Of a stretch of DNA of 64,000 bases, positions 18,946 through 57,800 are shown piece after piece. Each line of letters opens with the position of its first letter. Positions within the stretch are counted from its first letter, which is position 1. The stretch spans positions 14,012,001-14,076,000 of the forward strand of contig OZ024744.1 in assembly GCA_964016885.1 (NCBI GenBank), written 5' to 3'. The notes beneath the pieces were generated by a model. The model was given only the letters and a program-made list of their open reading frames with translations, was not told the origin of the DNA and did not search any database. The DNA is from Eledone cirrhosa (lineage: Eukaryota). Both the position numbers and the translations under genes were made by a program.

Positions 18946-19199
18946 TCATACTTTTTCCTATTTCCCACTCTACTACCCTAAGTATTGAATACACTGGTGC
19001 GTTATGGTCCATCTGGTTCCTTACCACAATTCCTTTGTTATATATATGTATATATATATATATATAGTTGTGTATAGTGGTAGCTATGGTGCTTCCATAG
19101 GCGGTATGCCAAAATTAGCACTCGATATTCATCAGAGTAGAGTATAGATATTATAAAGGAAACGAAAAATCAGTGATGTATCTGGACTTAGTTTATTTC

Positions 19200-19289
19200 G
19201 TGTTACAAATGTTTCGCCGTCATGTAGCTCGAGTCATGGTCCTTGTATGGATCTGGCCCTATTCTATTTCTGCTGGTTCTTTCAGACAC
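19200..19289 (-). ncRNA. Hammerhead-like motif with one extra core base and branched stem II
   Basis: GTGT CTGAAAGA ACC...(~55 nt, internal hairpins)...GGC GAAA CA-TT-TG TA ACAC. Lies in an ORF-less segment (19066-19850) between (TA)n tracts. Confidence 0.55.
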
Positions 19290-19906
19290 AGGTGTTACGT
19301 CCGGAACAAATTTTATCACTGGGGTGTTATCATCAAAACAACACCCTCAAAAGACCCTAATTCTACTCTTGTCATGCCATTGGCTGTTTTTACTCCACGT
19401 CATCACAAGTTCTGGTCAGTATCTGCTGCCACACGGTTCATCAACCCTTTTCCGTCCGACACATTGCAATGGAGTCATGCTGGATTCAGTACTTCACACG
19501 TCTGCTCACACTTCAGATTAAGCACCCACACGTACTAGAATACACACATAAAAACACACACACACATGCAGACACATACCTACCTATGCATACACACTCG
19601 TACGCCTACATGCGCAGACCCCCCCCCACATACATACATCGCAGTATATATACTCACATACCCTCTCTCCCTCACTTCCACGGACCCAGTCACACCCACT
19701 TGTTGATACATATCGGCACACGCCTTCTGACGGTTGTTTACGCCGCGCTCTGTATCAATTAGGATAAGCATATCCGACTGAAACGAACACATATATTCAT
19801 AAATACGCGCGCACATACACATTCGCGCAACCTTCTATACATTTAGATATATATATATATAGTGACGAAACATAAGTCAATTGCATGAACTCATAATCCT
19901 TTATTT

Positions 19907-19962
19907 ACTGCTATATATATTTCGATGATAGCCATTGAATGGCTATGACTTCATCAGGCAGT
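19907..19962 (-). ncRNA. Type I hammerhead ribozyme
   Basis: ACTGC CTGATGA AGTC-ATAGCCATT-C-AATGGCTAT-CATC GAAA TATATA TA GCAGT; perfect 5 bp stem I, palindromic stem III. Confidence 0.8.
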
Positions 19963-20238
19963 TAGTCAGTTCTTAGAATGCCAGCTCTGTGTTTATAGTG
20001 TTGATGGTATCAGAGCATTGGGACATATGAGCTTGTTAGGAATAATTTAATTGGTCAGTTTGTAGATGCTAGTAGGGTTGGTATTTGACCTCAAAGAGGC
20101 AGGTGTTGTTGTAAAGTTCAAACCGTCAGGCAAGATGACAATAGTTCCACATGACTGATTTTCACAAAAAGCATTCCTGGTCAGATATATATTCAATTAA
20201 GGTTAATAGTATGAAAAAGATACTACAGGTCATTCTTA

Positions 20239-53349: not shown

Positions 53350-54194
53350 ATTATTATTATTATTATTATTATTATTATTATTATTATTATTATTATTATT
53401 ATTATTATTATTATTATTATTATTATTATTCTCTACAGTCCTTACACAAAAATATGTTGACAATCTTTTAATAATGTCTTCCTTGTGAAATTTGTGGTCT
53501 TGTTTTTCTTAACTAATTAATATTTCCGTCTCTACGCGCCTAACTTCTGCATGAACCCAGCCACCTAGCTGCTTTCTACTGCATATTGCACATTGAGCAC
53601 ATGCCTTTACGCTTTGGCTTCTAACTAATTCACCAATCTCTCCTCTCCTATCTCCATCTCTCTCTTTAAGATTGGTTACTCTTGAACTGTGTATATATAT
53701 ATATATATATATATATATATATATATATATATATATATATATATATATATATATATATATATATATATATATATATAAGTGGAAGGGGTATTCAATAAGT
53801 TGAAAATCCGACAAATATAAATAAAAATATAAATGTTTATAACTGATTTAGAACGCCTAACACTTCTGGAGTAAATATTCAATGATATTACATATATTTA
53901 ATATCTTTGTATATTTATATATATATAATCATACATATATATATACACACATATATATAGACATACACACATATACACACACACACACATACATAAAGTT
54001 ACATCACCACATATATATAAAACACACACACACACACACACACACACACACATATATATATATATATATATATATATATATATAAATATACATACATATA
54101 CAAACTCATATACATAAACATACATATACACGCACAATAATTACACACTCACATAAGCATATATATATATATATATATATATATATATATATAT

Positions 54195-54735
54195 GTAGAT
54201 AAATCTACCAAGAGTTTACGGTAGTGTCCAATCCGTATGAAGAACTCAATGTAATCCGGATATCATGGAAAGAAGAGATGCAATGAAAAATCACTTTCGG
54301 TGAAAGATAAACGGAATACAGAGTCAAGATAAAATATTAAAAAAATAATGAATAAAACAATGAAACAGTTCCTTATATTAAACAAAAAAAGTTCATTATT
54401 TAACGATCGTTTCTAGGATATATATGTGTTAGAATTGGCATGCATATTCAACAGATCTATGTACAAAATTATACAAAATTATACAAACTATCAAAATTAA
54501 ATATACATACCAACACATATATATGCCGTCTTCAGAAATAATAATAATGTGTTGGTATGTATATTTAATTTTGATAGTTTGTATAATTTTGTATAATTTT
54601 GTACATAGATCTGTTGAATATGCATGCCAATTCTAACACATATATATCCTAGAAACGATCGTTAAATAATGAACTTTTTTTGTTTAATATAAGGAACTGT
54701 TTCATTGTTTTATTCATTATTTTTTTAATATTTTA
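54195..54735 (-). mobile_element. ORF-less fold-back pLTR element (~190 bp arms)
   Basis: 54330-54519 is the reverse complement of 54547-54735; both ends at (TA)n. Confidence 0.85.
54395..54542 (-). ncRNA. Type I hammerhead ribozyme with ~115 nt stem II domain
   Basis: ATTATTT CTGAAGA CGG-C-ATATATATGTGTTGG...CTAACACATATATAT-CC-TA GAAA CGATCG TT AAATAAT. Confidence 0.8.
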
Positions 54736-54829
54736 TATATATATATATATATATATATATATATATATATATATATATATATATATATATATATATATAT
54801 ATATATATATGTATATACAAATACGCATA

Positions 54830-57800
54830 CTTATACATACACATACTTATACATATACATATATATACATACATACACACAGAAATGTATATCTATTTTT
54901 AAAAAAGAGGTGGCTGTCTAAAGGGTAAGGTAGAAAGTAGGGAGGAATAGAATTCAACAGCATTATAAATAACGTAGGAAAAAAAATATAAATATAAGAG
55001 GAGATGAGGGAGAAAAAGAATATATGGGTACAGAATGTGAGTTCAGAGAGTAATAAGGATCGTAGTGGATGTAAGGCATAATGAGTAAAGAAGAAGTTCA
55101 TGGTGGTTGAGTCATCGTAGGAATGTCAATCCAGTTACAAAGTAGATTTGATTTCAGGTGAGGACAACATCTGAAGATCTCACTCTTGGTGTTAAGGCAA
55201 GTGGAAGTGGCTTTCAAATTTTGGAGAATTCTAATTTTTACCGTGGTGCACAAAGAACAATTCTTTGTGCCCCTTTTTGATATTCTCTTGAATGGTCTAA
55301 AATAGACCAAACGATAGTGTACGGGATGTTTTTGTCTTTGAATTCCCACACTTTATTTGCGAGAGCCGTTGCTGTTCTTTTATCAGGGTGTTTAAAAGAA
55401 GCGGCATGTGCATAAAACCTGGTTTTGAACCTGTCCTGAGTCATGCCATCATGACTCAGGACTCACTCCTGGCTGGCTGGTTGTTAATCAACGGTGTCAA
55501 TTTGGCCTCATACACGACGGATTTAGTATTACATTTGCCCTGTAATGGGCATTCTTCCGGCCTCCTGCAACTGCATCCTGGATTTACTCTCGTACGATTA
55601 GAGTTGGTAATTTTAGTTTTCATTGATGGACAGCAAGAGTAACTGATTTTGACTACATTTCTATTAAATATCTTATAATATCTATGATTAGGGGTTAATG
55701 TTTGTCTAGGAGGTCGAGGAATTTCCTTCTTACATTAGTTTTGACAGTTAGAGAGAAGGGGGTGTAAACCAAATAATTTTCCTTTTCCTGTTATTGTGAT
55801 TAGTTTTAGAGGAAGGAGTAGATAAATATTTAATATGTTCTGTAAAGCCGCTGTTATTGAGGGCCTTATTATACATGTTAAAAATGTCTAGAGACGAAGA
55901 TAAGGTAGAAATCCTACGGCTTATGTTAGGAATAAGATTTTAAAAACTATAGGGGATGGCAAGACTCTTTGTGTATATATCTTAGATTCTCGTTAGGTTT
56001 ATGATAAGGTTTAAAAGAGGCGGTAAGTAGATCAAGATTAATATCAAGAAAGTTAGCATTAGTAAGGTTCGTATCTATAGTAATTTTAAGGTTTAGGTTA
56101 GCAAAAGTACTGATTAAATCTTTACGGAATTTATCAAGGCTATGGCCGTTTGTGGTATGAGAAACTGCCAATACGTCGTTTCGGTGTAAACCGATATTAT
56201 GGCAAGGAAATGTCTCTTTAAGGGTGTAGAGAAGGAATAATCCTACTAAGTCGCACACATCAGCACTGTCATATGAACCCATCGCAACATCAAAAGAGTT
56301 TTCAAGGATTGACTTTTTAATCCAAATACTTTCATTAGTAAAGAGTAGAGTTTTCCTAGCATGAAAGATAATGTCTTTTTCTAATTTAGAAATATTAATG
56401 AAAGGTCTTGCAAAATCTAAGGCTTTTGTTAATAAGGAAACAGTAATAGAGGGGTAAAAATCAACAATATCAAATTAGGTAAATCTACACTTATTTTTAC
56501 CTTGTATATTATTAAACCAAGAAATAACAGAGGATGTATTTAACCATTGTGATAAATCAGTTTTAGTTCTAATTTGGAGTATTATTTTTCTTAACATTTT
56601 TTTACTTGCAAGGTAACTTCAGATTTAGCCGGGTTAATTAGTCTACAGCTAGCTCAATTAGTGAAGTCTGATTTATGGTCTTTAAGGGTAATATACTCTT
56701 TACGTTTAGCTAGGCTTTCAATCCGGTTGTCTATTTTTAAAATACTAGCTAGGTCTTAGAGCTTCTTTATTAATAGTATTGTAGGTGTTATTGTTAGCTA
56801 ATTGATATTTATTGGTGATACTATCTGTTAAAAGTTGGTTATACAAAATACTATTTACTTCAAAGAGATTTTTAGTTTTATCGGAAAGAACAAAAGTGTT
56901 AGTAGAATTTTTAAGATTAGAAATATCGTTAGAAAGTTTAGTTTGAAAGTTATTGTTGTACTTACGAATTAAATTAACAAGGTCCAATTCGAAGTTGGCC
57001 ATGTCTTTAATTCTAGGTGGGTATTTGCGGGATTTAATGCCAAAACAATCATTTGTATCAGCACTGAATAGTCCATCGTAAACCATTGCCTTCCATCTCA
57101 TTCTGTTAACAACTTGTTCGATTTTATCTATAAGCAGTTTGGTATAAGTTGTGTTGGAAGGAGTAGGTATATTTTTGATAGAATAATCCAATTCATAAAC
57201 GTCCATGGTGTATGTTGGTTAATTTCCTGAAAACTATAGAGTGCTCAACTTATCGGGCTGGAAAGTGCCAATCATATATGTAATATAGAATATGCCTCAA
57301 TCAATCCCGGTTGAAGTAATTCCGTCGGAAAGGTCCAGGAAAAAAAAGTGCTCTATGTAGGTTACAGAGCTTATTAGTTATGTAATAAACAGCATAAGAT
57401 AATTATTTCATTTACCAATGGTTTCTTGAAAGCAAACAAATCTGCTTTCAGTTGTTAGAATGAAAAAATTCTGGTGTTTTTATTGAATGTAGATTTGAAA
57501 ACAAAAATATAAGAAATATGAAAGTGAGGCTGAGGGAAGAAGAAAGAAAGATTATAAATATATAAGTATATAAACACACACACACACATATATATGCACA
57601 TATATATATATAAATATACATACACATAAATACACAAACACATGTATATATATATATACACATATATATATACACACATACATACATATATACACACACA
57701 CACATAATTATAAAAATAAGTAAAAATAAATAAACTCGACCATGCGCATATATTAAAATAAGCAGTCACATCAACTGGCAAAGATAAATCCATATACATG

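Follow-up and report, generated by a model that had tools for sequence, protein, structure and literature searches.

Penelope-like elements (PLEs) in the genome of Eledone cirrhosa (3.0 Gb) carry two bulged hairpins between the hammerhead ribozyme of their pseudo-long terminal repeat (pLTR) and the start of their open reading frame (ORF), and most of their insertions end about six nucleotides (nt) before one or other of these hairpins. The elements, which sequence features place in the Hydra clade, were analysed in a 64-kb stretch of DNA (assembly GCA_964016885.1, contig OZ024744.1, positions 14,012,001 to 14,076,000, forward strand; hereafter, the window) and in further loci. Each hairpin is likely an RNA site that is bound by the element's protein and that fixes the start of reverse transcription six nt upstream of itself. 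An earlier note on this DNA had proposed such an RNA-recognition role for the hairpin that follows the ribozyme, and our results support that reading, in which protein binding and initiation of reverse transcription would follow by analogy with in vitro work on PAc (Poseidon, Anolis; Frangieh et al. 2024, PMC11167929). The second hairpin, before the ORF, is new beyond that note.

Two hairpins bound the PLE tail

Side-by-side reading of the hairpins gave a consensus, in the sense RNA, of RCUC, an inner stem, a 2-nt 3' bulge starting with U, and GAGY, mostly followed by RC. Taken alone, the bare pattern RCTC-N6-30-GAGY is weak, with 49 matches in the window. At full-length junctions a second hairpin lies ~65–105 nt downstream of the first and before the ORF in eight families (D, G, C, F, F2, A, B and T), and this hairpin-to-hairpin distance equals the length of the tail. 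Copies of family D have two exact ends, and in those that read through into the ORF (loci L007 and L012) hairpin 2 follows the long end at a distance of six nt, as is likewise the case in families G, C, F, F2 and T. Family B supplied two read-throughs among 30 loci (L199 and L206), the query itself being without hairpin 2. For read-through copies of family A, 46 of 47 pattern matches fell at one spacing and the control gave none, in a search whose pattern demanded RCTC and which thus tests the spacing of hairpin 2, not its presence. A query made of the tail end plus one fixed letter returned four hits, with no read-throughs among them. That long ends have a hairpin of their own six nt downstream in eight families follows from the earlier idea of a recognition element, though the note had not predicted it.

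Two side observations concern the tail. The family D tail contains a further perfect 8-bp inverted repeat between hairpin 1 and the long end (27376–27394, +), and the tails of other families look structured too; in a B-like long arm at 29393–29516 (+), a deletion between two CTC words has removed the interior of hairpin 1 together with a large part of the tail.

Most insertions end about six nucleotides before either hairpin

Insertion ends lie before hairpin 1, giving a short arm, or before hairpin 2, giving a long, tail-bearing arm, mostly at ~6 nt. Each end was placed as an interval, and position −6 falls within the modal interval of 21 of the 22 hairpins scored (out of 23, the family at 53571 having yielded no ends), compared with 14 for −7, 16 for −5 and 15 for −4. 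Position −6 is bounded on both sides: five modal intervals end there, so that the position cannot be later, and seven begin there, so that it cannot be earlier. Among single ends, 227 of 315 fit −6. In a forward test on family F, whose long end was previously not known, 25 of 30 copies end where predicted and the other five read through, with a pattern that is blind to earlier ends and with one copy that permits −5. Homology to (TA)n beyond the junction is not required, as seen at hairpin 1 of family B and at hairpin 2 of families B and F. In contigs from sequencing runs, (AT)n loose ends occur at L007 1731 in four of four runs and at 1643 in two of four; these are the same two ends, and the contigs are silent on RNA. 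The ribozyme cut was considered as the origin of the ends and rejected, the cut site lying tens of nt upstream.

Applying the six-nt rule also led to the true 5' arm of hairpin 1 in the 53571 family. The earlier note had listed 53571–53598 as a copy of the motif; the family does have hairpin 1, but the 5' arm given there was wrong and reads GCTT. The true arm lies 43 nt further upstream (GTCTC at 53528; GCTC in loci L070, L138 and L254), six nt after the short end.

The motif is enriched and its stem covaries

We sampled 100 loci of 10 kb each (1 Mb), chosen by position only, and compared them with ten dinucleotide-resampled sets; the full motif occurred 73 times in the former and 2–11 times per resampled set. 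A (TA)n tract lies 40–80 nt downstream of most of the full-motif hits listed. Bare RCTC..GAGY hits lying 35–90 nt after a ribozyme core (21 hits, including two double counts and one likely chance hit) were compared with the 897 other bare hits for features that had not been filtered on: the U bulge was present in 20 of 21 compared with 343 of 897, the two inner pairs in 18 compared with 208, and RC after GAGY in 16 compared with 130.

The covariation claimed for the outer pair held up in 88 tail-context hits in which this pair was unfiltered: 78 were Watson–Crick, with both types present (A-T 53, G-C 25), alongside one G-T, no A-C and nine others. Among 50 representatives, each a family or subfamily, the unfiltered inner pairs 3 and 4 were Watson–Crick in 32 and 28, against shuffle means of 13.4 and 15.3, and a 2-nt bulge allowed pairing at 136 of 150 inner positions, where bulges of 0, 1 and 3 nt gave 68, 35 and 47. 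RNAalifold, applied to the 38 short-loop representatives, returned a stem of four pairs followed, after a 2-nt bulge, by three more; four of the seven pairs show two-sided changes. Loop lengths range from ~4 to 60 nt. At inner pairs 1–3 of 43 distinct unfiltered hairpins, G-U outnumbered A-C by 16 to 3, an excess that lends modest support to folding of the sense strand. Thus, on the three points on which the earlier note had staked its reading, namely positional enrichment, covariation and dependence of 3' truncation points on the motif, the results all came out in its favour.

Inverted insertions pair one long with one short arm

The position-picked loci contain 63 long and 69 short ends, which form 34 distinct inverted pairs: 28 long/short, none long/long, none short/short, and six with an unclassifiable or read-through arm. 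The hairpin is retained by one arm only, as had been claimed: the short arm ends before hairpin 1 and the long arm carries it in all 28 classifiable pairs. The long/short arrangement was also found in six of seven pairs in ribozyme-picked loci and in five of six in the window. Two short/short rows, from loci selected by the D tail (L009 and L018), wrongly pair ends that are not adjacent, and L074, among the position-picked rows, is a duplicate. Extra 5' sequence lies in the short arm in 11 and in the long arm in 6 of the 17 callable pairs out of 91, 66 being uninformative (arms merged in the self-alignment) and 8 uncalled. Arms of the same insertion are more alike than arms of other insertions in family D (0.012 compared with 0.021, 24 pairs), B (0.043 and 0.088, 11 pairs), I (0.042 and 0.078, 12 pairs) and G (0.070 and 0.132, 6 pairs).

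Self-comparison of the window recovered the inverted pairs 24231–25333/27322–26220, 29992–31393/33243–31853, 33448–34495/37983–36930 and 17968–18095/18961–18833. Near-perfect palindromes at 15727–16438, 54329–54736, 27768–27887 and 61864–62026 could be small inverted insertions from other PLE families.

Copies of the motif in the window

The hairpins and short arms of the window are as follows.

6556..6582 (+), hairpin 1 of a further family; long end ~6658
18967..18990 (+), hairpin 1 of family I, mutated (GAAT for GAGT; intact in L138 and L229); long end ~19039, short partner ends 17969 (−)
19120..19143 (−), hairpin 1 of a separate family, long arm; ends ~19066, after a degenerate ribozyme-like stretch at 19285–19212 (read from sequence)
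19861..19957 (−), short arm of family F; core 19957–19920, ORF 23812–21037, both hairpins in other family F copies
24233..24331 (−), short arm of family D; core 24331–24285, ends before hairpin 1 at (TA)n, main arm with ORF end 25350–26225
27327..27351 (+), hairpin 1 of family D, long arm; ribozyme core 27222–27268, long end ~27410
30116..30136 (−), hairpin 1 of family A, long arm; end ~30066, core variant 30236–30188, short partner ends 33119 (+)
33420..33441 (−), hairpin 1 of family B, long arm; end 33348, core 33532–33508 (RF00163, 29.1 bits, under the cut-off), short partner ends 37983 (+)
38936..38960 (+), hairpin 1, inner stem decayed, long arm; short partner ends 38473 (−)
40171..40195 (−), hairpin 1 of family E, long arm; end ~40089, 5'-truncated copy without its own ribozyme
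40315..40397 (−), short arm of family C; core 40397–40361, ends before hairpin 1
41226..41258 (+), hairpin 1, long arm; end ~41307, short partner ends near 40862 (−)
53528..53598 (+), long-range hairpin 1; true 5' arm 53528, short partner ends 41527 (−), other elements nested between the arms
57350..57370 (−), hairpin 1 of family C, read-through junction; leads to ORF start 57206, 5' arm of hairpin 2 lost in this copy, its 3' arm at 57251–57241
58102..58126 (−), hairpin 1 of a D-related family, long arm; end ~58042, short partner ends 60752 (+)

All nine sequences cited in the earlier note were found in place, and the five partner copies that it described as stopping just before the hairpin do stop at (TA)n, at 24233, 33119, 37983, 60752 and 17969, within 1–2 nt of the positions given. 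Two of the listed hairpins belong to other elements than the nearest intact ribozyme: the hairpin at 40171–40195 is of a different family from the ribozyme at 40397–40361, whose own copy stops at 40315, and that at 19120–19143 lies ~780 nt from the intact core at 19957–19920, which is a short arm of family F. The listed copies at 38936 and 41226 both stand in sense on the + strand; the former is without the inner stem in this copy. Three copies had been overlooked, at 58102–58126 (−), 6556–6582 (+) and, in mutated form, 18967–18990 (+). A GCTC..GAGC match at 19984–20016 lies upstream of a ribozyme and has no U bulge, and was left uncounted. The interval 41527–53691 is one PLE insertion, interrupted by ~11 kb of ORFs from other retroelements that sit nested within an (ATT)n tract; inside it, 45965–47302 and 52013–53350 are 99.5% identical.

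Host elements are assigned to the Hydra clade

The assignment of the host elements to the Hydra clade is based on their sequence features. The R-W of the N-terminal RWK-type motif is kept in six of six aligned ORFs (RWK, RWR and RWT), as is the change from DKG to DKT, and a CxCx5C linker before the C-terminal GIY-YIG domain was found in loci L068, L153 and L118 and in the window ORFs 25350–26225 and 35562–36137; the ORF of L153 is naturally open, at 892 aa. Pfam matched GIY-YIG in one of seven fragments, under the cut-off (E=0.0011). Hammerhead cores of the pLTR were detected in the window downstream of ORFs, RF00163 exceeded its cut-off at 18 places in the genome, all family B-like, and (TA)n is the insertion target. 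RW[K/R], DKT, the CxCx5C linker, the ribozyme and (TA)n targets are given as Hydra-clade features in the part of Craig et al. (2021, PMC8557442) used here. Where no ORF is linked to a family (E, I, J, N, O, T and others), the assignment is from end structure only. Six family ORFs are 36–56% identical to the first, so that the motif is common to deeply split families; the earlier note had it shared by otherwise unalignable ones.

A Rfam scan of the window at large found two hammerheads and otherwise only microsatellite-driven miRNA and snoRNA matches; in six loci with one or both hairpins, Rfam gave no match at the gathering score. A hidden Markov model (HMM) search of solved structures gave no hits. 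Six other ribozyme-bearing repeat types in the genome are without the motif (0/1, 0/9, 0/7, 1/24, 0/22 and 0/7, the single hit being the hairpin of a neighbour).

Several neighbouring elements were recorded alongside. The abundant family K (window 1347–1481, 8200–8400, 17771–17970 and 33257–33348; locus L228) combines a Hydra ORF with hairpin 1, but in place of the expected ribozyme core CTGANGA it reads CAGAAGA. In the family I ribozyme (18856–18922, +, and 18073–18007, −), stem II is very long and the core is a TTGACAA variant. A non-Hydra PLE type (window 15388–15660, +, and 61021–61273, +; loci L216, L217 and L223) has two ends ~50 nt apart and no RCTC motif, and its tail looks self-complementary from end to end. 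Loci L065 and L068 contain tandem ribozyme repeats of ~490 and ~310 nt, retrozyme-like and without the hairpin motif.

The motif occurs in other phyla

Six published Hydra consensus sequences (PMC8557442 supplement) were read by eye. The exact motif is present in Hydra-2_Amil from a coral and in Hydra-2_Ajap from a sea cucumber. Hydra-1_Ajap has it twice ahead of the ATG, and the 3' end of this consensus does not reach hairpin 1. Copepod Hydra-1_Crog has a GCCC/GGGC variant and Hydra-1_Obim a weak variant; the Hydra-1_Amil consensus ends before the motif position. A first scan of metagenomes found nothing, and a second returned nine loci, of which a strict filter flagged three (L277, L279 and L282). 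Reading by eye showed two copies each in L276 and L282, three of these four with a mismatch at inner pair 2; the second copy in L277 is GTTC/GAAC, L275 has a variant, L281 has none, and three loci are without ends. For the 3' copy in L276 the end interval includes −6. The hairpin is a cross-phylum cis-element of a known transposon clade, and apparently an undescribed one.

A model for initiation at two sites, and its alternatives

In the mechanism that we favour, the endonuclease would nick both strands of the (TA)n target; one copy of the protein, on hairpin 1, would prime from one strand to give the short arm, and a second copy, on hairpin 2, would prime from the opposite strand to give the long arm. 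Each bound protein would hold its active site six nt upstream of its hairpin, and both primings would probably take place on the same RNA. The invariant CUC/GAG pairs and the bulged U would form the recognised face, leaving the loop free. The PLE tail would then be the stretch between the two starts, beginning ~6 nt before hairpin 1 and containing it.

Several observations weigh against this model. Microhomology with (TA)n gives each end an ambiguity interval of 1–6 nt, 88 of 315 single ends misfit −6, and the modal end of family Jb is −4/−3. Hairpin 2 of families A and C closes only over ~55–60 nt, and several hairpins fold weakly (−2 to −5 kcal/mol), with single-sequence folds giving the bulge not always. 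Among the 50 representatives the outer pair and inner pairs 1–2 served as search filters, and copies and families are related, so that p-values and counts overstate independence. The same-RNA signal is absent in families K, Jb, F2 and J, and where arms are alike, subfamily structure or conversion could be the cause instead. PAc itself belongs to another clade and starts in an AC-rich stem-loop; its binding motif is undefined, and no such hairpin is named in the part of PMC11167929 covered here.

The fixed offset would suit a nuclease as well, and the ends could arise by resolution at the DNA level, with the GIY-YIG endonuclease recognising the hairpin in single-stranded or extruded DNA and cutting six nt away, so that the intermediate is trimmed to two ends. 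Craig et al. (PMC8557442, in the part consulted) ascribe the tail to endonuclease-mediated resolution, and the D. virilis tail is reported to have been needed for endonuclease recognition of plasmids (PMC11167929). We nevertheless consider this unlikely, given the excess of G-U over A-C on the sense strand, loop lengths that rule out a fixed duplex palindrome, and PAc start sites that were mapped on RNA in vitro and coincide with tail ends (PMC11167929). Sharp ends at a fixed distance, together with PAc RNA-seq reads that end at start sites, would also be expected if the hairpins directed an RNA cut six nt upstream and two 3' ends were then copied from the end, as in LINEs. Such processing is quite unlikely: PAc starts internally whatever the 3' extension and uses unprocessed RNA as its main substrate (PMC11167929), a cut would take the hairpin off the template, two separately cut RNAs do not alone give strict long/short pairs, and the ribozyme, too, cuts tens of nt upstream of both ends.

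Strict long/short pairing and arm likeness would be accounted for if a single complementary DNA (cDNA) begun at the long end snapped back and copied itself until hairpin 1 halted it, leaving the short arm. This is very unlikely, as it predicts that extra 5' sequence is always in the long arm, whereas the short arm has it in 11 of the 17 callable pairs and in window families D and B, and as it gives no account of hairpin 2, with its identical six-nt offset and its place beyond the cDNA. That the hairpins are chance palindromes beside AT-rich spots attracting (TA)n priming can be practically discounted; the bare pattern is common in the window and spacers are AT-rich, but enrichment, covariation, the second copy, the fixed offset and occurrence in other phyla refute it.

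Relation to known systems and significance

The proposed initiation at two hairpins has a close counterpart in PAc, whose protein cuts and extends both strands in vitro and is predicted to dimerise, and whose reverse transcription begins at two internal positions of the RNA, which delimit the tail, requiring RNA 3' of the start, to +172, and an AT-rich target (PMC11167929). The Hydra elements share the AT-rich target and, in the favoured model, would resemble PAc in having two internal tail-defining starts, in the use of both strands and in the need for RNA 3' of the start. In the printed PAc template, by hand count, AUCUC at +125–129 can pair with GAGAU at +159–163, just 3' of the +111–118 start; there is no UN bulge, and we take this as a lead only. 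The Hydra clade of Craig et al. (2021), as described in the part of PMC8557442 available to us, matches our elements in its reverse transcriptase with a C-terminal GIY-YIG, RW[K/R], DKT, CxCx5C, pLTR ribozyme, (TA)n, inverted 5'-truncated arm and one-end tail; it gives an endonuclease-made tail of 30–40 bp for PLEs in general, in contrast to the ~65–105 nt, bounded by two hairpins, found here. The same part describes no tail hairpin ('hairpin' 0 occurrences, 'stem' 2). As far as they were covered, PMC13282606 has no occurrence of 'hairpin', and PMC4209133 and a retrozyme preprint (10.64898/2026.07.22.740005) were not found to describe the motif. No publication describing it was found, subscription papers and Repbase notes being outside the coverage of the search.

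Formation of the PLE tail and inverted arm has been an open question for decades, a step left unresolved in the portions of Craig et al. (2021) and Frangieh et al. (2024) considered here. The motif is short, is found from corals to echinoderms, occurs twice and keeps a fixed 6-nt offset, which makes the question open to direct experiment.

Structured RNAs that are bound by a reverse transcriptase and set where copying starts or stops are familiar from the 3' stem-loops of R2 and LINEs, HBV epsilon and the template boundary of telomerase RNA. These are single sites, mostly at or near the RNA end, or involve priming from protein or an internal template; the Hydra elements are set apart from them by two like hairpins on one RNA that would mark two starts, paired to opposite DNA strands. 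In L1 twin priming, two primings on opposite target strands likewise give an inverted insertion, but there the position of the second priming varies and the arms are free of overlap, whereas in the Hydra elements the two starts would be fixed and the overlapping arms form an inverted repeat.

PLEs are the sister group of telomerase reverse transcriptases. A bolder and doubtful extension is that twin protein-bound hairpins with a six-nt ruler are the general PLE engine, in which a dimer on two CUC/GAG hairpins of one RNA would prime both strands of the break and produce the tails and inverted arms of all clades, PAc included; if so, the hairpin may be a counterpart of the RNA-binding step of telomerase and could serve as a portable tag to program internal reverse transcription. 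For the Hydra elements themselves, the six-nt offset provides a rule for annotating element ends, the motif is possibly an RNA tag for insertion tools, and the twin hairpins offer a testable cause of the long-puzzling PLE tail.

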